Shown here piece after piece: positions 2,116 through 32,805 of a stretch of 64,000 nucleotides of DNA. The notes below the pieces were generated by a model, which saw only the letters and a program-made list of their open reading frames with translations, searched no databases and was not told where the DNA came from. Made by a program: the position numbers and the translations under genes. This DNA comes from Gaiellales bacterium (GTDB taxonomy: Bacteria; Actinomycetota; Thermoleophilia; Gaiellales; JAICJC01): contig DASWRM010000042.1 of assembly GCA_036403155.1 (NCBI GenBank), positions 49,463 to 113,462 of the forward strand, in the 5' to 3' direction. Within the stretch, counting starts at the first letter, position 1. Each line of letters starts with the position of its first letter.

Positions 2116-2589
2116 GTGCCGCTCCTCGTCACGCCCTACCAGTTCTATCTGACGGTGCACATCCTGGCTGCGATCGTGTGGGTCGGCGGCGCCGCGATCA
2201 CACAGGTCTACGCCGCGCGGGCCCAGGCGTCGGGCGACCCCGAGCGGATCGCGGGCTTCGCGCACGACGCGGAGTTCGTCGGCCGCACGATGTTCGCCCC
2301 GTCTGCGGTCGTGCTGCTGATCTTCGGGTTCCTGCTCGTCAACGAGGGCGACTGGACGCTGAGCAGCGCGTGGATCGACGTCGCACTCGCCGTGTGGGCG
2401 GCATCGTTCGTGGTCGGGATCGGCTTCCTCGGGCCGGAATCGGGGCGCATCGGGCGGATGATCGAGCAGCGGGGCGCGAGCGCCCCCGAGGTGCGCCGCC
2501 GGATCGAGCGGATCTTCCTGATCAGCCGCATCGAGCTGCTGTTCCTGCTGGTCATCGTCGTCGACATGGTCACCAAACCGGGAACCTGA
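2116..2589 (+). CDS. Small integral membrane protein (4 TM, DUF2269-like from memory)
   Basis: GTG-start ORF. Four hydrophobic helices ([57 protein letters not shown]). Family assignment from memory only. Confidence 0.6.
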
Positions 2590-2610
2590 GAGGGCTTCGG
2601 CCCAGGTCCA

Positions 2611-2616
2611 TAGAAT
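2611..2616 (+). promoter_or_regulatory. -10 hexamer TAGAAT, 8 nt upstream of leuS ATG (leaderless leuS)
   Basis: ccaTAGAATcccggggcATG. Only 35 nt separate the upstream stop from the leuS ATG, and there is no SD. Confidence 0.5.
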
Positions 2617-2624
2617 CCCGGGGC

Positions 2625-5090
2625 ATGGAACGGTACGACCCCGGCCGCATCGAGGCTCGCTGGCAGGAGATCTGGCGCGACCTGCAGATCCACGAGGTGC
2701 CCAACCCGGCGCCCGGCGACGACGTGTCGAAGCTGATGTACGTGCTCGAGATGCTGCCCTATCCCTCGGGCGAGCTGCACATGGGCCACGTCAAGAACTA
2801 CACGATGGGCGACGTCGTCACGCTGTTTCGCCGCCGCAACGGGTGGCATGTGATGCACCCGATGGGGTACGACTCGTTCGGCCTGCCGGCCGAGAACGCG
2901 GCGATCAAGAGCGGCAAGCATCCCGCCGTTTCCACGTCAGAGAACATCGCCGCGATCCGCGTGCAGATGCAACGGATGGGCTGGTCGATCGACTGGACGC
3001 GCGAGCTGTCCACCGCCGACCCCGACTACTACCGATGGACGCAGTGGATCTTCCTGCGGCTGTTCGAGGCCGGGCTGGCGTACCGGAAGCTCGCGCCCGT
3101 GAAGTGGTGCCCGAACGACCAGACCGTGCTCGCAAACGAGCAGGTGATCGACGGGCACTGCGAGCGCTGCGGCCACCTGGTCGAGTCCAAGAACCTCGAG
3201 CAGTGGTTCTTCAAGATCACCGACTACGCCCAGCGGCTGCTGGACGACCTGGCGGACGTCCGCTGGCCCGAGCGCGTCGTGACGATGCAGCGCAACTGGA
3301 TCGGCCGCAGCGAGGGCGCTGAGGTGGTGTTCCGCGCCGAGCACGACTCGTCGATCGAGATCCCCGTGTTCACGACCAGGCCGGACACGCTGTTCGGGGC
3401 GACGTTCTTCGTGCTGGCGCCGGAGCATCCGCTGGCGGTGCAGCTGGCGGCGGGAACCGACGGGGCCGGCGCGGTCGCGGACTACGTGCGGCAGACGGCG
3501 GCGCTGTCCGAGGTGGAGCGGTCGGCGGAGAAGGAGAAGTCCGGCGTGTACACCGGACGCAACGTGATCAACCCGGTGAACGGCGAGCCGATCCCCGTAT
3601 GGGTCGCGGACTACGTGCTGATGGAGTACGGCACCGGCGCGATCATGGCGGTGCCCGCGCACGACGAGCGCGACTTCGAGTTCGCATCCGCGCACGGGCT
3701 GCCCGTCCGGCAGGTCGTGGCGCCGCGCGACGGGGCGGCCTCGGACGGCGCGGCCTACGTCGCCCACAGCGGGGACGAGGTGCTGGTGAACTCGGGGCGG
3801 TTCGACGGGCTGGCGTCGCCGGCGGCCAAGCAGGCGATCATCGAGTGGCTCGAGTCGGAAGGGCGGGGAAAGGGCCGCGTCGCCTACCGCCTGCGCGACT
3901 GGCTGCTCTCGCGCCAGCGCTACTGGGGCTGCCCGATTCCGATCATCCACTGCCCGGCGTGCGGGACCGTGCCGGTCCCAGATGATCAGCTGCCCGTCGT
4001 ACTGCCCGAGCTCGAGGACTTCGCGCCGAAGGGCCGGTCACCGCTCGCATCGGCGGAGCAATGGGTGCACGTGTCGTGCCCCAGGTGCGGAGGCGATGCG
4101 ACGCGCGAGACCGACACCATGGACACCTTCGTGGACTCCTCCTGGTACTACATGCGCTACGCCGACCCGCGCAACGAGGAGGCGCCGTTCGACCGCGCGA
4201 TCGTGGACACGTGGCTGCCCGTCGACCAGTACATCGGCGGCGTCGAGCACGCGATCCTGCACCTGATGTACGCGCGGTTCTTCACGAAGGCGCTGTACGA
4301 CCTGGGATACGTCGGCTTCACGGAGCCGTTCGCGGATCTGTTCACCCAGGGCATGATCTATTACCTGGGCGCGAAGATGTCCAAGTCGAAGGGGAACATC
4401 ATCAACCCCGACGACCTGGTGGAGCGCTATGGGGCAGACACGACGCGCCTGTACACCCTGTTCCTGGGGCCGCCCGACCAGGACGCGGAGTGGCAGGACA
4501 CCGGCGTTGCCGGCCAGCACCGGTTCCTGGCGCGGCTCTGGCGGCTCGTCAACGAGATCGTCGAGGCGCACGGGGCCGGGATACCGTCGTCGGTCGAGGC
4601 CACCGGCGGGGGAGCCGGCCTGGTACGCAAGGCGCACTGGGCGATCGACAAGGTGACGGGGGACCTGGGTGAGCGGTTCTCGTTCAACACGGCCCAGTCG
4701 GCGGTGCACGAGCTGGTCGGCGCGATCCAGGATGCCGAGGGCGCCGACGCCGAGCAGCTGCGCTTCGCGGCCGCGACGGCGGTGAGCCTGATCCATCCGT
4801 ATGCCCCGCACATCGCATGCGAGCTGTGGGAGCGGCTGGGCGGCGAGCGGCTGTGGGACGAGCCGTGGCCGGCCGCGGATCCGGCGATGCTCGCGCGCGA
4901 CACGGTCACCTACGCGGTGCAGGTGGATGGCAAGCGGCGCGGCGAGGTCGAGGTGGCGGTGGGAACAGAGGAGGACGCGGTCGCCGAGGCCGCGCGCGCG
5001 GTGCCGAACGTGGCTGCGCATCTGGACGGCAGGACGGTGCGAAAGACGATCGTCGTCCCCGGCCGCCTCGTCAACTTCGTCGTCGGCTGA
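2625..5090 (+). CDS. leuS: Leucyl-tRNA synthetase
   Basis: Internal ATG of track ORF 2178..5090 ([17 protein letters not shown]..). Class I motifs LHMGHVKNY (HIGH variant) and [10 protein letters not shown] (KMSKS). The upstream part of the track ORF is Arg-rich nonsense overlapping the previous gene. Confidence 0.95.
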
Positions 5091-5112
5091 GCGACACGCC
5101 CCTGCGCGACCC

Positions 5113-5408
5113 CGTGACGCCCGCGTGACCGGGCGGCGTCACGGATCGGTCACGCGTCTGCGGCACCCCACCCTCCGGTGACCAAGTCGTTCCAGGCGGT
5201 CGTCACGGCGCCGTTTCGCCGGTGTGACGGCGGGTCGCCTCGCCGGCGGCTTCCCGCCGCCAACCCCACTCCTCCGTGCCCCCCTCGGTGACCAAGTCGT
5301 TCGCGTGGGGCGCGAGCCGGCCGTCACCCACCCGTGACGCGGCCAGACGTGAGCTCCGGCGTGCTCATACCGTAACCGCTTCGCCACCTGTCGCCACCCA
5401 CGTGTGAC
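5113..5408. repeat. Array of 11 GTGAC/GTCAC pentamers in the leuS-comEA spacer, including a dyad-symmetric 4-site element and a duplicated 16-mer
   Basis: GTGAC at 5114, 5125, 5178, 5224, 5288, 5334, 5404. GTCAC at 5138, 5149, 5202, 5323. The sites at 5114/5125 and 5138/5149 are 11 nt apart within each pair and symmetric about 5133/5134 (CGTGAC..CGTGAC..GTCACG..GTCACG). GGTGACCAAGTCGTTC is exact at 5177-5192 and 5287-5302. Confidence 0.7.
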
Positions 5409-5431
5409 GCGGGCGGCGGCATCATCGCCCC

Positions 5432-6001
5432 ATGCTCCCGATCCCACCTCAGCGCCTGCTGCTCTACGCCGCCGCCGCGGCCGCCGTGCTGCTGATCGGC
5501 CTGCGGATGCAGGGCGGGGGATCGACGCCGAGCTATTCCTCGCCGGGGCGCTCCATCGCGGCGCCGGCCCCCGCCGGCCCGGCCGTCGTCGTCGTGGACG
5601 TGGTCGGAGCGGTGCGGCGCCCCGGCGTCTACCGGCTTCCCGAAGGCGCACGGGTGCAGGATGCCGTGCAGCGTGCCCGTGCCACGCGACGCGCGCAGCT
5701 CGAGGGTTTGAACCTGGCCGAGCGGCTCGCGGATGGCGAGCAGGTGGTCGTCCCCGGGCGCGGCGGCGCCGGGGCCGCGGTCGCAACAGCCGCTCCTGGG
5801 AGCGAGCAGGCGCCTGTCCACCTCAACAGCGCCTCGCTCGAGCAGCTGGAGACGCTCGACGGCATCGGCCCCTCACTCGCCCAGCGAATCGTCGACTACC
5901 GGACGCAGCACGGCGGGTTCCGCTCGCTGGACGAGCTCGACCAGGTGAGCGGATTCGGGCCGGCGCGCCTGGCCGCCCTGCGCGGTCATGTGGCGCTGTG
6001 A
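5432..6001 (+). CDS. comEA: Competence protein ComEA (DNA receptor, helix-hairpin-helix)
   Basis: N-terminal TM helix (LLLYAAAAAAVLLIGL), SLBB-like middle, C-terminal tandem HhH LEQLETLDGIGPSLAQRIVDYR..LDELDQVSGFGPARL. Confidence 0.85.
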   Translation: MLPIPPQRLLLYAAAAAAVLLIGLRMQGGGSTPSYSSPGRSIAAPAPAGPAVVVVDVVGAVRRPGVYRLPEGARVQDAVQRARATRRAQLEGLNLAERLADGEQVVVPGRGGAGAAVATAAPGSEQAPVHLNSASLEQLETLDGIGPSLAQRIVDYRTQHGGFRSLDELDQVSGFGPARLAALRGHVAL

Positions 6002-7208
6002 CCCGCCGACGCGGGTCGTGCTCGCGGCGGTCGCCGGTCTCGCCTCGGCGGCGCTCGGACACCCGCTGCTGGCCGCACTGGCCGGGATCCCTGCGCGACC
6101 GCGACTGCTGTTGCTGCTCGTCGCGCTCGGTGCGGCGATGTTCGGCGGCATGCGGACTGCCGCCCTGGAGCGATCCGTGCTGCGCCCCGGCCGCTTCGGC
6201 GCGCCCGTGGTCGTGACCGGCGCGCCGAGCGGTGACCGCGCCGTCGCCAGCGTGCCCGGCGCCGCCGAGGACGTGCTGCTCGTCGCGCCCGGATACCGGC
6301 CGCAACTGGGCGCCGCATACCGCGCCGCGGGCCGGCTGCACGAGATCGACGCGGCAGTGCGCGGCTACTACGCGACTCAGGGCGTCCATCTCGAGCTCCG
6401 GGCGTCACGGCTCGTGTATCTCGGGCGACGCGGCGGCCTCTGGGGCTTCGTCGACTCCGTGCATGCGGCGGCGCTGCGACGCCTCCAGGCCGGTCCCGAC
6501 GCATCAGCGCCGCGCTCGCTGGTCGCCGGTATCACCCTCGGCGAGACGGGTGCGATGCCCGCCGACGTGCGGCAGCAGTTCCGCGACTCCGGCCTGTATC
6601 ACCTCGTCGCCGTGTCGGGCCAGAACGTTGCGTTGGTGGTCGTCTTCGCGCTCGCCTGCCTGGCGGCCGCCGGCGTGATCGGCGCGCCTGCGCGGATCGC
6701 GGCCATCGCCGCGACGGTGCTGTACGTGCTCGTCACCGGCGCCGGGCCCTCGATCGTCCGCGCTGGGGTGGCGGGCACGCTGGTCGCGATCGCCTGGCTG
6801 GCGTCCCGGCCGGTCGCCCGCTGGCATCTTCTGGCATGCGGAGCCGCGGTCGTGCTCGCGCTGAATCCGCTCGACCTCTTCAACCCCGGGTTCCAGCTCA
6901 GCTTCGCCGCGGTCTGGGCCATCTACGTCCTGGCCCCGCGGCTGCAGCCGCGGCTCGGGTCGGCGGTGGCCGTGTCGGTTGCCTGCACGCTCGTGACCAC
7001 GCCGATCGCGTGGTGGCACTTCGGCAGCCTCGCGCCCCTGTCCGTCCCCGCGAACGTCCTGGCGCTCCCCGCGGCCGCGCCGATCCTCGTCTGCGGGCTG
7101 GCAGCGATCGTCACCGGCTCCGTCTGGCAACCGCTGGCGACGCCGCTGCTGGGGGTGGCCGACCTGCTCGCCGGCTACCTGATCTGGGTGGCCCGCCTGT
7201 GCTCGTGA
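5988..7208 (+). CDS. comEC: ComEC/Rec2 competence channel, membrane domain only
   Basis: Polytopic protein with the competence-domain signature ..FRDSGLYHLVAVSGQNVALV... Starts 14 nt inside comEA. Ends right after the TM domain, with no C-terminal metallo-beta-lactamase domain. Confidence 0.8.
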   Translation: MWRCDPPTRVVLAAVAGLASAALGHPLLAALAGIPARPRLLLLLVALGAAMFGGMRTAALERSVLRPGRFGAPVVVTGAPSGDRAVASVPGAAEDVLLVAPGYRPQLGAAYRAAGRLHEIDAAVRGYYATQGVHLELRASRLVYLGRRGGLWGFVDSVHAAALRRLQAGPDASAPRSLVAGITLGETGAMPADVRQQFRDSGLYHLVAVSGQNVALVVVFALACLAAAGVIGAPARIAAIAATVLYVLVTGAGPSIVRAGVAGTLVAIAWLASRPVARWHLLACGAAVVLALNPLDLFNPGFQLSFAAVWAIYVLAPRLQPRLGSAVAVSVACTLVTTPIAWWHFGSLAPLSVPANVLALPAAAPILVCGLAAIVTGSVWQPLATPLLGVADLLAGYLIWVARLCS

Positions 7209-7230
7209 CCGTCGGCGCGGCCGCGGCGGG

Positions 7231-8334
7231 TCAGGCCGGCGTCGCCAGCGACCGCGGCGCGGCGCCGACGTAGCGCGAGTCGGGACGGATCAGCCGGCCG
7301 TGCGCCGCCTGCTCGAGCGCGTGCGCCGTCCAGCCCGCCGTTCGGGCGACGGCGAACGCGGGGGTGTAGAGATCGGTGAGCAGGCCGACGCCGTCGAGCA
7401 CGATCGACGCGTAGTACTCGACGTTGGTCTTCAGCGGCCGGTCGGGCTTGTGCTCGGCGAGCAGCCGCAGTGCGACGTCCTCGACGTCGATCGCGAGCTG
7501 CAGCCAGTCAGCGTCCGCCGCAAGCCGTTCGGCGACCTGGCGAAGCGCGGCGGCGCGGGGATCCATCGTCTTGTAGACGCGGTGCCCGAAGCCCATCAGG
7601 CGCTCGCCGCGAGCCAGTGCTTCGCGGATCCACACCTCGGCATGGTCGACGTCGCCGATCTGCGTCAGCTGGTCGCGCACCTCGGAGGGAGCGCCGCCGT
7701 GGAGCCGCCCCTTGAGCGCGCCGACGGCGCCGCAGACCGCACTTGCAAGATCGCTCTGCGTGCTCGTGATGACGCGCGCCGTGAACGTCGACGCGTTCAG
7801 GCCGTGCTCGGCGCACACCGTGAAGTACGCGTCGAGCGCACGCGCCTGGGCCGGATCGGGCTGCTCGCCGCTGATCGCGTGCAACAGTCGCCCGGCCACG
7901 CCGAGGTCCGCGCCCTCGGAGCTGTCGACCGGCCGCTTGCCGTCTCGAAGCCGCGCGAATGCCCCGACGACGGCGGGCCCGAGTGCGATCAGCTGGCGAG
8001 CCTGATCCGGCGTCGGCGGCCAGCCGAACCGCCGCTCCGCGCCGAAGGCCGAGACGCCGGTTCGCAGTGCATCGAGCGGCGCGCACGACGTCGGAAGCCC
8101 GCGCAGCGCGGCCAGCACGGTCGAGTCGAGCTCCGCCACGGGCAGCACCTCGTCATCCGCCGGCCATTCGCCGTCGAGCAGCAGCCCCACCACCCGGTCG
8201 TAGCTCCCGTGCGAGGCGAGATCGCCGATCTCGTACCCCCGGTAGAGCAACCGCCCCGCCTGCCCGTCGACGAGGCTGATCGTCGTCTCGGCGGCGACGA
8301 CTCCCTCAAGCCCGCTGTTGACCTCCGCTGGCAT
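7231..8334 (-). CDS. Citrate synthase family protein (citrate/2-methylcitrate synthase)
   Basis: Signature ..GFGHRVYKTMDPRA.. and ..NVEYYASIVL... The track ORF starts at 8400. I prefer ATG 8334 (MPAEVNSGLEGVV..) because TACAAT lies 9 nt upstream on the minus strand. Confidence 0.85.
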   Translation of the reverse strand: MPAEVNSGLEGVVAAETTISLVDGQAGRLLYRGYEIGDLASHGSYDRVVGLLLDGEWPADDEVLPVAELDSTVLAALRGLPTSCAPLDALRTGVSAFGAERRFGWPPTPDQARQLIALGPAVVGAFARLRDGKRPVDSSEGADLGVAGRLLHAISGEQPDPAQARALDAYFTVCAEHGLNASTFTARVITSTQSDLASAVCGAVGALKGRLHGGAPSEVRDQLTQIGDVDHAEVWIREALARGERLMGFGHRVYKTMDPRAAALRQVAERLAADADWLQLAIDVEDVALRLLAEHKPDRPLKTNVEYYASIVLDGVGLLTDLYTPAFAVARTAGWTAHALEQAAHGRLIRPDSRYVGAAPRSLATPA

Positions 8335-8343
8335 GGCGGCGCG

Positions 8344-8408
8344 ATTGTAGCCACCCATCGGCTCGAGCACGCGCATCCGCCGTGCCCGGTTGCCGTCCAT
8401 GCGACAAT
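8344..8408. promoter_or_regulatory. Divergent -10 elements for citrate synthase (TACAAT, minus, 8344-8349) and the Rrf2 gene (GACAAT, plus, 8403-8408)
   Basis: Minus strand: ggCTACAATcgcgccgccATG. Plus strand: gcGACAATgaggccATG. Both hexamers lie 6-9 nt from the start codon. The Rrf2 hexamer is weaker (G at position 1). Confidence 0.4.
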
Positions 8409-10457: not shown

Positions 10458-10494
10458 CGTCACAGCGGGCGTTTGCCGTTGCACGGCTGTGACG
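10458..10494 (+). terminator. Hairpin with 9-bp perfect stem (CGTCACAGC / GCTGTGACG), 19-nt loop, no T-tract
   Basis: Begins 4 nt after the stop of the membrane-protein gene. The arms contain the same GTCAC/GTGAC core seen in the leuS-comEA spacer. Confidence 0.4.
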
Positions 10495-10528
10495 AGCAGC
10501 GGCGGCCGAACCGTTCTAGGATCGGGGC

Positions 10529-11032
10529 GTGCGCCCGTCTGCCTCAGCCGTCTCGTCCGCCCTCGCAGCCTCCGCAACGCGGCGGCGGCAGCCCGGCCCT
10601 CCGCGCGGCATGGGCCGGGAGTGGGTCGCCGCGCTCGCGGGCGTGCCGCTCTTCGCCGGCCTCTCGCAGCGGCAGCTGCGCTCCATCGCGCGCCTGGCCG
10701 AGCAGGTGCAGGTGCCCGCCGGCGCCCCGGTGGTGTTCCGTGCCGCGCCCGGCAGCGAGTTCTTCGTCATCCTCGACGGAACGGCGGTGGCCGGGCCGCC
10801 GACCCGCGAGCAGCACCACCTCGGGCAGGGAGACTTCTTCGGCGAGATGTCCGTGATCGACGGCCGGCCGCGCTCCGCAGCCGTCCGAGCCGAGACCGAC
10901 CTGACGCTGATGGTGCTCGGGCGCTCCGCCTTCCTCCGGCTCCTGCGCGAGCAGCCGTCGGTCGGGATCGCGGTGATGACCGAGCTCGCGGCGCGCGTCC
11001 GGCGCCTCGAGGCGGCTACGTCTCGGTCGTGA
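10529..11032 (+). CDS. Stand-alone cyclic-nucleotide-binding (CAP_ED) domain protein
   Basis: ..[12 protein letters not shown].. and ..[19 protein letters not shown].. (FGE..RSA phosphate-binding cassette). No HTH or other output domain. GTG 10529 lies 6 nt after TAGGAT (10517-10522). ATG 10610 is an alternative start. Confidence 0.8.
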
Positions 11033-11288: not shown

Positions 11289-11315
11289 AGAAAAGCCCCT
11301 CCGCGGGGCCGTCGG

Positions 11316-11331
11316 ACTATAGCACTAGACT
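11316..11331. promoter_or_regulatory. Back-to-back -10 elements: TATAGT (minus, rpsT) and TAGACT (plus, murJ leaderless)
   Basis: Plus strand ggACTATAgcacTAGACTctcccgccgATG. TAGACT lies 9 nt before the murJ ATG. On the minus strand, TATAGT precedes a ~27-nt SD-containing rpsT leader. Confidence 0.5.
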
Positions 11332-11340
11332 CTCCCGCCG

Positions 11341-12906
11341 ATGGCAGACACCCGCCGGCTGGCGACGTCCACGGCCGTCTTCGGAGCGGCCACCGCGATC
11401 TCCAGAGTGGCGGGCCTGGTACGGGAGAGCGCCGCGGCCGCCGTGCTCGGCTCGGGCTCGGTCTACTCGGCGTTCACGGTCGCGTTCAACCTGCCCAACC
11501 TGATCCGGGCGATCGTCGCCGACAACGCGATCAGCGCCGCGTTCGTGCCCGTGTTCCTCGAGCTGCGCGAGCGTGGGGAGGAGCGGGAGGCCTGGCGTGT
11601 CGCCGGCATGGTGATCTGGACGACGGCCGTCGTGCTCGGGGCCCTGTCGGCGCTGTTCATGCTGCTCGCCCCGCTGTTCGTCCCGCTCCTGCTGCTCGGC
11701 AACGGCAACGTCAGCTCCGATCTCGTCGTGTCGCTGACCCGCTGCCTGTTCCCGATCGTGGTGCTGATGGGGCTGACCGGCGTGGTCACCGGCATCCTCA
11801 ACGCCGAGCGCATCTTCGGCGTGCCGGCGTTCGCGCCGGTCGTGTGGAACCTCGTCATCATCGCGGCGCTGTTCGGCTTCGCCCGGCACGGGTCGCTCGA
11901 GTACCGGGCGCACGTCTATGCGATCGGCATCCTCGTGGCCACGATCGTCCAGCTGATGATCCCGCTGCCGCTGCTCCGCGGCCGCGGCACCGGCCTGGCC
12001 TTCCAGCTCGGCTTCGGCAACGAGCACGTGCGGCGGGTGCTGCGGCTGATGATCCCCGTCTCGCTGGGCCTCGGCCTGATCAACGTGAACCTGACGCTCG
12101 ATACGCTGATCGCGACGCATCACAGCGACACCGCCGCCGGCGACCTCGGCTTCGCCTTCCGGCTCTTCATGCTGCCGCAGGGGCTGTTCTCGGTGGCCGT
12201 GTCGTCGGTGCTGTTCCCGGAGCTGGCGCGCGCGGCCGGCGCCCGCGACCTGCCCGAGCTCTCCCGCATCGTCTCCCGCGGAGCCCGTGCCATCGTCTTC
12301 CTCCTGCTCCCCGCCGCGGCCGTCTCGATCGCGCTCGCCTACCCGGTGGTGCGCCTGCTCTACCAACACGGCCAGTTCGACGCGGGCGATACCCGGCGCG
12401 TCGGCGCGACGCTGATCACCTTCTCGCTCGGGCTGGTCGCGAACGGCCTCTCCCTGCTCCTGACGCGTGCCTTCTTCAGCCTGCAGGAGCCGCGCGTGCC
12501 GACGCAGGTGGCTGTCATCAACCTGGTTCTCAACCTCATCCTCGACATCGCGCTGCTGCACTTCGGGGCTGCCGGCATCGCCCTCGCCACGGCGGTCGTG
12601 ACAACCTTCAACGCCGTGGCGCTGGCGCTGCTGCTCCGCCGCCGCGTGGGGCTGATGCACGGCCGCGAGATCGCGCGGGCGACGCTCCTGACCGTCGTTG
12701 CGACCATCTACTGCACCGTTGCCGCCCTTGGCACCTGGTATCCGCTCGACCAGCTGCTCGGCCACACGCTGGGTGCCCAGATCGTGTCGCTCGCGCTCGG
12801 GCTGCTCGCCGGCGCAGCCGCGTACCTCGCGGCCGCACGCTTCCTCGGCCTCGAGGAGGTCGGCATCCTCACCAGCCTGGTGCGCCGCCGCGCGGCGCCC
12901 GCCTGA
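11341..12906 (+). CDS. murJ: Lipid II flippase MurJ (MviN)
   Basis: N-terminus ..[38 protein letters not shown].. is typical of MurJ. About 14 TM helices. Confidence 0.9.
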
Positions 12907-26002: not shown

Positions 26003-26040
26003 GTGACGCTTTCGTGACGCGGCGGGGCTAGTTCCGTCAC
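26003..26040. repeat. GTGACGC-N4-GTGACGC doublet plus inverted GTCAC upstream of the kinase-like gene
   Basis: GTGAC at 26003 and 26014 (11-nt phase, as at 5114/5125). GTCAC at 26036. TAGCCT -10 (26052-26057) lies 6 nt before ATG 26064. Confidence 0.5.
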
Positions 26041-26063
26041 GGCGAGCTCCCTAGCCTTCGTGC

Positions 26064-27185
26064 ATGCCCGCGTCCGCCACCTCCACCGCACTCGTGATCG
26101 CCGGCCGCTACCTCGCGAGCCCGGCGGCCCTGCGCACGCGCCCCGAGGGGCCGATCGAGGCGCTGGACACGCGCTCGGGCCGAACCGCGCAGGTGCGGAT
26201 CGTCTTCGCGAGCGACGGATGGGAGGACGAGGCGTTCACCGAGGCCGTGTCGCGCTGGTGCGCGCTCGCGTGCTCGGAGATCTGCGGCGTGCTCGACTTC
26301 GGGGAGCACGAAGGCCGCCGGTTCCTGGTGGTGCCGCCCTCGCTCGGGATGACCGTCGAGCGATGGCAGGCGACCCGCCGCCCCGGGGCGGCCGATGCCG
26401 CAGCGCTGACGCTCGCCTTCGGCCGTCTCGCCGAGCGGATCGCGGCGGCGGGCTTCCCGGTCGACGCGTGCGACCTCGCCGACTGCGCGGTCGGCCCCGG
26501 GCCGACGCCGTTCATCGAGCGGCCGCTGCTCGGCTCGCCGCTCGTCAACGACGTGCTGGTGGGCCCCAGGGACGGCCAGCGAACGCTCGCATCCGTGCTT
26601 CGGGCCGCCGGGTCGGGGCCGCTGCCGGAGCCGCTGGCAGCCTGGTTGGAGCGGGCGGAACGGGCCGGATTCGCCTCCCTCGCCGAGTGCCTCGACGATC
26701 TCGAGCGCTGCGGGAACGACGTCCGCAGCAGCGATCCGACAGGCGACCTGCTCGGGCTCGACGGGCTGTTCGACGAGGACGACGAGGCGTTCGAGGCCCG
26801 GTTCCTGAGCCCCGAGCCGCGCCGCTGGCCGCGACGAGTGCTGGGCGGCGCCGGCGCTCTCGCGCTCGCGGTGCTCGCGTTCGCCGCGCTCGGCCACCGT
26901 CAACCGGGAGCCCTGGACGCTGCCGTTCGGCCCGCCGCCCCCCGGCCGGTCGCTGTCGCGGAGGCGCCGCCACATGCCGACGCGAAACCCCGCCGGCACC
27001 ACGCCCACCGCCGCCCGCATCCGCACGCCCGCCGGACGCAGCGTCCCTCTCACCGCCACGCGACGCGCCCGGACACCCCGCCACCTCCGCCGTCCCCGCC
27101 GGCCGCGACGCCGACCCGCGCGAGCAGCGGGAGCGGCACCGCGCTGCCCGATCCGGGCTCGGTCGCCACGCTGCCGCCCCCCTGA
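26064..27185 (+). CDS. Membrane-anchored protein with degenerate Ser/Thr-kinase-like N-domain and His/Arg/Pro-rich tail
   Basis: The N-domain follows the kinase layout (IAGRY.., ..AQVRIVF.., ..RRFLVVPP..) but lacks the VAIK Lys and HRD/DFG motifs. One TM helix (VLGGAGALALAVLAFAALG). Tail HADAKPRRHHAHRRPHPHARR..PPPPPSPP. GC3-rich codons. The antisense ORF is nonsense. Confidence 0.55.
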   Translation: MPASATSTALVIAGRYLASPAALRTRPEGPIEALDTRSGRTAQVRIVFASDGWEDEAFTEAVSRWCALACSEICGVLDFGEHEGRRFLVVPPSLGMTVERWQATRRPGAADAAALTLAFGRLAERIAAAGFPVDACDLADCAVGPGPTPFIERPLLGSPLVNDVLVGPRDGQRTLASVLRAAGSGPLPEPLAAWLERAERAGFASLAECLDDLERCGNDVRSSDPTGDLLGLDGLFDEDDEAFEARFLSPEPRRWPRRVLGGAGALALAVLAFAALGHRQPGALDAAVRPAAPRPVAVAEAPPHADAKPRRHHAHRRPHPHARRTQRPSHRHATRPDTPPPPPSPPAATPTRASSGSGTALPDPGSVATLPPP

Positions 27186-32520: not shown

Positions 32521-32565
32521 ACCGTCACGCCGCATCACGATCGTGCACCAGAACGTCGTCGCCCC

Positions 32566-32610
32566 CCGAGTCGGGCTCTGAGCCCTTTTCCGGCCGGTAG
32601 CGGACGCTTC
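32566..32610 (+). repeat. Direct repeat copy 1 with embedded mini-hairpin plus T4 (GGGCTCTGAGCCCTTTT)
   Basis: CCGAGTCGGGCTCTGAGCCCTTTTCCGGCCGGTAGCGGACGCTTC. Lies 46 nt after the stop of the 164-aa gene. Confidence 0.7.
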
Positions 32611-32674
32611 GAGCGGGATTCGGTCACAAGGATGCGCCGCGGCGCGCGAGGTCGTCAAGAAGCGATCACGGCGG

Positions 32675-32719
32675 CCGACTCGGGCTCTGAGCCCTTTTCC
32701 GGCCGATAGCGGACGCTTT
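32675..32719 (+). repeat. Direct repeat copy 2 (109 nt downstream of copy 1)
   Basis: CCGACTCGGGCTCTGAGCCCTTTTCCGGCCGATAGCGGACGCTTT. Differs from copy 1 at about 3 positions. Confidence 0.7.
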
Positions 32720-32805
32720 GGGTGCCCCGCGTGGCGGCCAGGATCGCGTTCGCTGCGCCGCCCGCCCGGGTAGGTGGGCCTCAGTCCCCGCCCTGGAGGT
32801 GTCCC

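Follow-up and report, generated by a model that had tools for sequence, protein, structure and literature searches.

A phased GTnAC array as a putative cis-regulatory feature of the comEA-comEC promoter in Thermoleophilia, with an apparent lineage-specific expansion to 11 pentamers in a Gaiellales genome

We analyzed the spacer between leuS (leucyl-tRNA synthetase) and the competence operon comEA-comEC of a Gaiellales bacterium, within a stretch of 64,000 nucleotides of contig DASWRM010000042.1 (hereafter the window, whose numbering is used throughout). The spacer holds 11 copies of the pentamers GTGAC/GTCAC, and phased pentamers of this type are found at a fixed distance from a -10-like hexamer in comEA promoters across the Thermoleophilia, where they are predicted to be recognized by a trans-acting regulator. 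The flanking features are:

2178-5090, plus strand: leuS, the upstream gene (Pfam tRNA-synt_1_2, tRNA-synt_1 and Anticodon_1), whose stop codon ends at 5090.
5432-7208, plus strand: comEA-comEC operon, with comEA at 5432-6001 (Pfam SLBB and HHH_3) and comEC at 5988-7208 (Pfam Competence).

With comEA starting at the ATG at 5432, the leuS-comEA gap spans 5091-5431 (341 nt). It is non-coding, as an earlier note on this DNA, made from its letters alone, had stated: the G+C fraction is 0.73-0.75 at every codon position in the six frames, stops occur in each frame, and no coding potential or small open reading frame (ORF) was found in any of the six. The same note had called the gap unusually long, which holds mainly in comparison with the orthologous spacers, as those of the nearest relatives measure ~60-170 nt and carry 1-4 pentamers, which tend to lie close before comEA. 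With 88% identity, the LeuS C-termini most similar to that of the window come from Gaiellales metagenome-assembled genomes (MAGs), all of the 80 best loci are from Thermoleophilia, and one protein of the window is 100% identical to a hypothetical protein of a Gaiellales MAG, which led us to reject a Streptomyces-type origin; the gene order leuS-comEA-comEC-holA resembles that of Streptomyces-type genomes, though the window is from Gaiellales.

GTGAC and GTCAC represent the two strands of one quasi-palindromic motif, GTSAC, which starts in the spacer at 5114, 5125, 5138, 5149, 5178, 5202, 5224, 5288, 5323, 5334, and 5404 (n = 11). The base composition of the spacer predicts 0.55 copies; per 341 nt, the remainder of the window gives 0.73 and 12 other gaps in a crude gene map give 0.81. 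These values agree with the estimate of fewer than one copy made earlier, and the density is not that of the other intergenic regions of the window. The clustering is real and highly non-random: the Poisson probability of at least 11 copies is ~4e-10, 2000 dinucleotide-preserving shuffles of the spacer gave a maximum of 7, and the second-densest 341-nt stretch in the 64-kb window contains 4. Outside the spacer, the same window has 136 copies vs ~119 expected from base counts, so that the motif is not avoided there. The 11-nt phasing that had been described within the spacer is limited to three adjacent pairs (5114/5125, 5138/5149, and 5323/5334), and the cluster as a whole has no common phasing.

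The part of the spacer nearest to comEA contains a different set of boxes, only the last of which is a perfect GTSAC:

5372-5408, plus strand: core array of four phased boxes (GTAAC 5372-5376, GCCAC 5383-5387, GCCAC 5393-5397, and GTGAC 5404-5408).
5420-5425, plus strand: CATCAT, the -10-like hexamer in the promoter of comEA, separated by 11 nt from the preceding proximal box and by 6 nt from the ATG.

A nAnnnT hexamer is present 6-8 nt before the start codon in 115 of 135 comEA loci. This hexamer was used to anchor 104 non-identical comEA upstream regions, collected from 80 genome and 80 metagenome loci and covering Gaiellales, Solirubrobacterales, Conexibacter, Thermoleophilaceae, and soil metagenomes. 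Pentamers of the type G[TG]NAC were found at an offset of -16 from the hexamer in 57 regions, at -27 in 43, at -38 in 30 (plus 11 at -37), at -49 in 9, and at -59 in 10, and were almost absent at other offsets. At least one in-phase pentamer occurs in 89 of the 104 regions and at least two in 58; with the offsets moved by 5 nt as a control, the number falls to 2 of 104. The core boxes of the window, with offsets of -16, -27, -37, and -48, agree with these class-wide peaks. They also align box for box with those of L001 and L002, the loci with the nearest spacers (GTGAC / GTGAC or GTAAC / GTCAC / GTTGG); in L002, the boxes GTGAC, GTGAC, GTCAC, and GTTGG are followed by N11 and CATGAT, and in the window GTAAC, GCCAC, GCCAC, and GTGAC are followed by N11 and CATCAT.

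The consensus of the aligned regions reads TC-GGCAC-gaAGcC-GtCAC-acACnC-GTGAC-Gg..T.C...Gg-CAnnnT-N6/7-ATG. At the proximal site, the base frequencies are 0.86 for G, 0.69 for T, 0.67 for A, and 0.73 for C, followed by R; the first triplet is GTG in 51%, GTA in 23%, and GTC in 20% of the cases, and the commonest pentamers at the phased sites are GTGAC, GTCAC, GGCAC, and GTAAC. When pentamer-to-hexamer distances of 7-15 nt were combined with periods of 8-14 nt, 42 composites fell at N11 with a period of 11 and 8 at N12 with the same period, while the other combinations gave at most 3 and N10 gave none. Plain spacing spectra over all DNA were dominated by coding periodicity.

Neither a -35-like consensus between -35 and -30 nor a Shine-Dalgarno sequence was found in the 104 comEA promoters, and the -10 hexamer is weakened by a C at its first position in 60% of them. 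Because a Shine-Dalgarno sequence is lacking and the distance from hexamer to start codon is fixed, the comEA mRNA is predicted to be leaderless. Such a start would place the hexamer at -12 to -7, and therefore the pentamers at ~-28 to -24, -39 to -35, and -50 to -46. On these alignments, the phased GTnAC array is a conserved, putatively cis-regulatory feature of the comEA-comEC promoter in Thermoleophilia; the suggestion that a regulator of the competence genes binds here at multiple sites, one of several readings offered in the earlier note, gains support from the fixed pentamer-to-hexamer distance, from the conservation of the phasing in relatives, and from its recurrence at a second operon of the window:

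26003-26063, plus strand: second promoter with the same architecture (GTGAC at 26003, GTGAC at 26014, GTCAC at 26036, N11, TAGCCT at 26052-26057, and N6 before the ATG at 26064).
26064-27185, plus strand: gene for a 373-aa hypothetical protein, a second candidate regulon member, with a predicted Hanks-kinase-fold (pseudokinase-like) cytoplasmic domain, one transmembrane helix, and a Pro-rich tail.

The layout of this promoter can be written GTGAC-N6-GTGAC-N17-GTCAC-N11-TAGCCT-N6-ATG. The 373-aa protein has no Pfam match. Its AlphaFold model has a predicted local distance difference test score (pLDDT) of 77 overall and >90 over residues 10-220, with PknA (4x3f) and the kinase-homology domain of Rv3910 (3uqc) as the best Foldseek matches, and residues 255-276 are predicted to form a long helix, read as transmembrane, that precedes the Pro-rich tail. 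Because it combines a kinase-like domain, a putative transmembrane helix, and such a tail, we take the protein to be a putative membrane pseudokinase-like protein. The gene is located between dgkA/PAP2 and cdd-era, and the array is kept upstream of homologs with 72, 65, 58, 49, and 48% identity (L161-L165), as in L162, where it reads GTGACggtttcGTGACgggttgcgtctggttccGTGACgcccccgtcccTAGCCTgtgagcATG.

The 42 composite matches, found in 1.3 Mb of DNA, all precede comEA or pseudokinase-like orthologs, with the addition of one PD-(D/E)XK endonuclease gene. The latter (L076, 950-1520, minus strand; PF11645) is preceded by GTGAC...GTGAC-N11-TAGGTT-N6-ATG and is a possible third regulon member. Candidate leaderless promoters were also collected from the window and L001-L080 as a TANNNT hexamer followed by N6/7 and a start codon, on condition that a stop in the same frame lies upstream. 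Of the 76 obtained, only the comEA orthologs and the site at 26036 of the window have the N11 pentamer, and those of holA, leuS, and others do not. A role of GTSAC in the promoters of these genomes at large was rejected, since the motif is absent at N11 from the other candidate leaderless promoters. That two unlinked operons share one precisely positioned array argues for a factor acting in trans. Elsewhere in the window, a gene for a stand-alone cyclic nucleotide monophosphate-binding-domain protein (10532-11032) is preceded, in the region 10460-10530, by a leaderless-type promoter (TAGGAT-N6-GTG) with GTGAC 23 nt and GTCAC 53 nt before the hexamer (30 nt start-to-start), a geometry unlike that of the comEA array.

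The other ten perfect pentamers of the spacer lie upstream of the core, in a part that also contains internal repeats:

5114-5118, 5125-5129, 5138-5142, 5149-5153, and 5178-5182, no strand assigned: first five extra GTSAC sites, within 5114-5338.
5202-5206, 5224-5228, 5288-5292, 5323-5327, and 5334-5338, no strand assigned: last five extra GTSAC sites, within 5114-5338.
5176-5192, plus strand: 17-mer CGGTGACCAAGTCGTTC, copy 1 of an exact repeat, 110 nt from the other copy.
5286-5302, plus strand: 17-mer CGGTGACCAAGTCGTTC, copy 2 of the exact repeat.
5317-5342, plus strand: 26-nt duplicate (CCGGCCGTCACCCACCCGTGACGCGG) of the two promoter-proximal boxes, 81% identical to 5387-5412.

Alignment with the L001 and L002 spacers showed homology only over ~5357-5431, the segment 5091-5356 (~265 nt, with the ten perfect pentamers) having no counterpart there. 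A scan of metagenomes for ComEA gave no closer relative (best identity 73%). On this comparison, the expansion to 11 sites appears specific to the lineage of this genome. The repeat seen earlier as a 16-mer recurring 110 nt apart is present and is in fact a 17-mer, with flanks that are also alike (CCACCCTCCGG vs CCCCCCTCGG), and 5122-5142 resembles 5401-5421. The short repeats suggest that some of the extra sites arose by local duplication. A decayed tandem duplication or a miniature repeat element, both proposed in the earlier note, did not stand: the internal repeats reaching significance are only of 17-26 nt, which led us to reject a simple tandem duplication, and a blastn-short search of the window and 160 related loci brought up the 17-mer repeat within the spacer and 13-20-mers at chance level, but no further copy of the spacer or its modules. 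A dispersed element of the miniature inverted-repeat transposable element (MITE) or repetitive extragenic palindromic (REP) type was rejected for the same lack of further copies. With a 32-nt position weight matrix (PWM) of the array, the top five matches in the window are the core (5379, plus strand), which is the best, three in the extra segment (5167, minus strand; 5309 and 5199, plus strand), and the array at 26011. Ten perfect sites in 265 nt would be hard to explain as neutral, and neutrality is made doubtful by the drift seen in several core boxes while these ten stayed perfect. The extra sites are candidates for function, presumably as binding sites.

The first four pentamers also have the potential to form a secondary structure:

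5103-5156, plus strand: imperfect hairpin formed by the first four pentamers (5114, 5125, 5138, and 5149), with a minimum free energy (MFE) of -40.2 kcal/mol (z = -1.6) and without a U tract.

They constitute the dyad [GTGAC-N6-GTGAC]-N8-[GTCAC-N6-GTCAC], centered on 5133/5134 as noted earlier, and the arms, formerly given as 6-bp helices or a 9-bp stem, are perfectly complementary over 10 nt at 5112-5121/5135-5144 and 5122-5131/5147-5156 (CCGTGACGCC/GGCGTCACGG and CGCGTGACCG/CGGTCACGCG). The dyad is not conserved in the aligned orthologous spacers. Because the relatives L001, L002, and L014 carry unrelated hairpins at the matching place after leuS, the hairpin of the window is probably a leuS terminator. 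Of the earlier proposal of a structured leuS 3' untranslated region or terminator, this part is plausible, for the first four copies only, while the fold z-scores are ordinary (-0.70 for the plus strand of the whole spacer, -1.85 for the minus strand, and -1.2 to -1.6 for the 5' part). A search of Rfam over 4800-5800 (E <= 10) gave only chance-level matches, the best having an E-value of 1.7, far below the gathering score, and a consensus scan for intrinsic terminators and sigma-70 promoters found nothing.

Other hairpins were observed during this analysis. The word GGGGTCAGACCCC, flanked by short inverted arms containing A/T, recurs in several Gaiellales/Thermoleophilia MAGs, just after leuS in L010-L016 (twice in L015) and at ~1390-1420 of L165, and could represent either a terminator in common use or an element resembling REPs. 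In the window, the intergenic region 32560-32725 contains a ~45-nt unit, CTCGGGCTCTGAGCCCTTTTCCGGCCG(G/A)TAGCGGACGCTT, twice, ~110 nt apart; each copy has a hairpin GGGCTC-TGA-GCCC followed by TTTTCC, and the unit could represent a small RNA or a terminator that was duplicated.

As for the genes around the spacer, the comEC ORF (406 aa) encodes the Competence domain alone, without the C-terminal metallo-beta-lactamase part (window 5988-8400), and adjoins a convergent citrate synthase gene (7231-8400, minus strand), so that the ComEC of the window may be short or truncated. Directly upstream of leuS, positions 27-2081 encode a GAF-PAS-PAS-HisKA_3-HATPase histidine kinase, with no partner response regulator within the window.

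We consider it probable, with moderate confidence, that the GTSAC pentamers are recognition sites of a trans-acting regulator of the comEA-comEC promoter. The core would consist of three to four pentamers (G[T/G]NAC) one helical turn (11 bp) apart, the last of which ends 11 bp before the -10-like hexamer and would cover ~-28 to -24 of a promoter devoid of a -35 hexamer. The -10-like hexamer lies 6-7 nt ahead of the start codon, which would make the mRNA leaderless. An activator with a winged helix, most probably a response regulator from the OmpR/PhoB family and of MtrA/GlnR type, could bind the phased sites cooperatively as tandem dimers and replace the missing contact of sigma region 4 with the -35 element, in the manner of PhoB/PhoP at Pho boxes. 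In the lineage of the window, the spacer would then have gained ~265 nt with 10 further perfect sites, partly via short local duplications of box-containing segments, and the extra sites would probably allow more of the same protein to bind. Among them, the four that directly follow the leuS stop, two direct pairs in inverted arrangement, probably double as the leuS terminator hairpin.

Several observations weigh against this reading. A phmmer search with an approximate M. tuberculosis MtrA query gave no response regulator in the window or L001-L080, one 10-kb contig extension (L166) showed none either, and there is thus no candidate binding protein at the searched loci. The sites overlap the core promoter and could equally repress, and the leaderless transcription start on which the numbering relies is itself a prediction. 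The proximal box of L001 and L002 is degenerate (GTTGG), hence the array evolves quickly in this sub-lineage. The quasi-palindromic core of the pentamer obscures whether the sites are direct or inverted: PWMs of adjacent sites correlate with r of 0.47-0.61 in direct and 0.35-0.47 in inverted orientation, and the core has a self-palindromy of r 0.57-0.69. Finally, the extra sites are out of helical phase with the core array, none of them has a -10-like hexamer of its own, and single PWM matches score no better than the best one in shuffled windows. A bolder version, which we hold to be distinctly unlikely, would be a hitherto unrecognized, class-wide competence regulon of Thermoleophilia comprising comEA-comEC, the membrane pseudokinase, and perhaps the PD-(D/E)XK nuclease, driven from leaderless promoters without a -35 element by a regulator reading phased GTnAC sites, the last of which forms a -26 element; in this Gaiellales lineage, amplification to an 11-site platform would then both end or block leuS transcription and provide a sink of high capacity, so that DNA uptake is switched on at a sharp threshold.

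Among the alternatives, we find it unlikely that only the core at 5372-5408 is functional and that the other ten copies have no regulatory role, having arisen neutrally with a terminator hairpin and with the local duplication of box-containing DNA. In favor of this idea, the 265-nt segment is absent from all the relatives compared, contains short internal repeats including the 26-nt copy of the proximal boxes and the 17-mer present twice, and has no common phase with the core, and its first four copies form a hairpin where relatives have terminator hairpins. However, the repeats account for few of the ten copies, whose number in perfect form is far above chance in 265 nt, and neutral DNA would be expected to lose perfect sites when even core boxes have drifted to GCCAC/GTAAC. 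It is also possible, though rather unlikely in our view, that the sites form the operator of a repressor, which would occlude RNA polymerase when bound at -26, -37, and -48, with the extra sites tightening repression or blocking read-through from leuS. The sites do overlap the core promoter region, as MtrA sites of Streptomyces overlap the bldD promoter and repress bldD (PMC5650626), and the four-site dyad directly after the leuS stop could make a bound protein a roadblock. Yet the combination of no -35-like hexamer and a -10 weakened in 60% of the promoters by a C at the first position is typical of activator-dependent promoters, and the proximal site is located where it is in activated Pho-box and PafBC promoters.

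The same sites could instead be bound by a winged-helix factor outside the OmpR family (of the WYL type or other), which would act by sigma adaptation as PafBC does, binding the -26 element and bridging to sigma region 4, with the upstream copies as accessories. This improbable variant draws on the fact that GTSACr-N10-nANNNT occupies the same six positions as the PafBC element (PMC8635444), and a stimulon related to DNA would suit both the composite before the PD-(D/E)XK nuclease gene and the handling of DNA by the comEA/comEC products. It is opposed by the GTC triplet, which is not conserved (20%), by the GT, shifted by 1 nt, by the 2-5 phased elements found here against the single element of PafBC promoters, and by PafBC-like GTCGG-N10-TAGACT promoters, which seem to be separate (window 11311, and before holA in L067 and L073). 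A structured RNA, whether a leuS 3' untranslated element, a small RNA, or a riboswitch-like comEA leader with the pentamers as helix segments, is very improbable: two pairs of 10-nt perfectly complementary arms and the minus-strand fold (z = -1.85) are the points in its favor, but Rfam has no match at E <= 1, the plus-strand z-score is -0.70 (-1.2 to -1.6 in the 5' part), and neither the dyad nor the sequence is conserved, what is conserved being the position of the pentamer relative to the -10, upstream of the predicted transcription start. GTSAC is the specificity of Tsp45I-type enzymes. That the motif serves here as a restriction-modification or methylation target, or else as the -35-type element of an alternative sigma factor, is barely credible to us. 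The distance to the -10-like hexamer is fixed, as such readings would have it; however, 11 nt falls short of the gap of a -35/-10 pair, which the 22 nt to the next box exceeds, sigma factors do not call for phased repetition of an element, and GTSAC is not avoided outside the spacer (136 vs ~119 expected). Recognition of the pentamers by a trans-acting regulator is hence the reading that we retain.

Thermoleophilia are abundant and mostly uncultured soil bacteria, and no description of the comEA array or of competence in this class was found in the literature searched. According to a 2021 study of Micrococcus luteus, little is known about the regulation of DNA uptake for any member of the actinobacterial phylum (PMC8467076). 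The conserved comEA module predicts a leaderless, activator-dependent promoter, and its motif could guide genome scans for further regulon members and for the gene of a regulator that controls itself, or serve as a probe in DNA affinity purification sequencing (DAP-seq) and electrophoretic mobility shift assays (EMSA). Promoters that lack a -35 and rely on a -26 element were proposed to be widespread in actinobacteria in the work on PafBC (PMC8635444), and the comEA module would add a further example with a factor-specific element at -26. The interest of the expansion to 11 sites is narrower, as a putative case of binding-site amplification in one lineage.

The comEA array can be compared with several known systems. 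The ComK boxes of the late competence promoters of Bacillus subtilis are helically phased short boxes that precede comE-type DNA-uptake operons and are bound by an oligomeric activator; these boxes are AT-rich (A4N5T4) and are bound by a different protein family in a different phylum, so that the layout is alike and there is no sequence relationship. The GlnR box of actinomycetes is gTnAc-n6-GaAAc, with an a-site (gTnAc) and an n6 spacing as in the comEA array. Unlike in the GlnR box, no GaAAc b-sites are present here, and every phased site is of the G[T/G]NAC type. Cross-talk between GlnR and PhoP takes place on GlnR-type boxes (PMC11825685).

Pho boxes consist of direct repeats in tandem, at 10 bp upstream of the -10 (PMC1906773), and cryo-electron microscopy of M. 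tuberculosis PhoP revealed tandem dimers on one to three boxes that displace the contact between the -35 and sigma R4 (PMC11825685). Like the Pho boxes of E. coli PhoB and of Streptomyces and M. tuberculosis PhoP, the comEA array is made of tandem 11-bp repeats that end ~10 bp before the -10 and replace the -35. Indeed, half-sites of 5-7 bp ~11 bp apart, as used by the OmpR/PhoB family, are what the period of 11 reflects (42 composites vs at most 3 for periods of 8-10 and 12-14), and the abutment of the array on the -10 in place of a -35 is seen in the N11 distance (42 composites, vs 8 at N12 and none at N10). In contrast to CTGTCAT or GTTCACC in the Pho boxes, the motif here is G[T/G]NAC with a free central base, and no sign of phosphate control was seen.

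The PafBC consensus is tGTCgg(N10)tANNNT, an element at -23 to -28 in promoters without a -35, with a GTC that is almost invariant across actinobacteria (PMC8635444). The comEA promoters resemble these hybrid promoters by the lack of a -35, the factor-specific element at -28 to -23, and the canonical or near-canonical -10, but differ by the non-conserved GTC, the GT displaced by 1 nt, and the repetition of the element in phase upstream (2-5 copies here vs a single one). Identity with the PafBC motif was rejected on the sequence of the proximal triplet (GTG 51%, GTA 23%, GTC 20%) and on the multiple phased copies. GTCGG-N10-TAGACT, which fits the PafBC consensus, was observed at 11311-11343 of the window (gene from ~11341), at 6945 of L067, and at 2850 of L073, the latter two being Solirubrobacteraceae MAGs in which it precedes presumed holA orthologs, as judged by position. 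GTCRG-N10-TANNNT has 11 matches, vs 2-7 at other spacings, and PafBC-like promoters thus seem to exist separately in these genomes.

A match in half-site and spacing is offered by MtrA, whose site is GtnAcC-n5-GTnAcn in Streptomyces and a direct repeat of GTCACAgcg in M. tuberculosis (PMC5650626, PMC13189361). The proximal sites of comEA have the half-site form GTnAC(c)/GTCACA, and the array shares with MtrA boxes the GTnAC half-site (often GTGACC or GTCACA here), the centre-to-centre distance of 11 bp, the presence of several boxes per promoter, and the overlap with the -35 region. It is unlike them in its targets, here comEA-comEC and a membrane pseudokinase, and in the ambiguous orientation of its half-sites; a full-text literature search gave no link between MtrA and comEA, and the text supplements of the S. 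venezuelae MtrA paper contain neither comEA-comEC nor the pseudokinase. By analogy, the comEA array is built like the site arrays of the OmpR/PhoB family and lies where Pho boxes and -26 elements are found, which leads us to favor an OmpR/PhoB-type winged-helix activator as the putative regulator, with a PafBC-like mechanism as the main rival.

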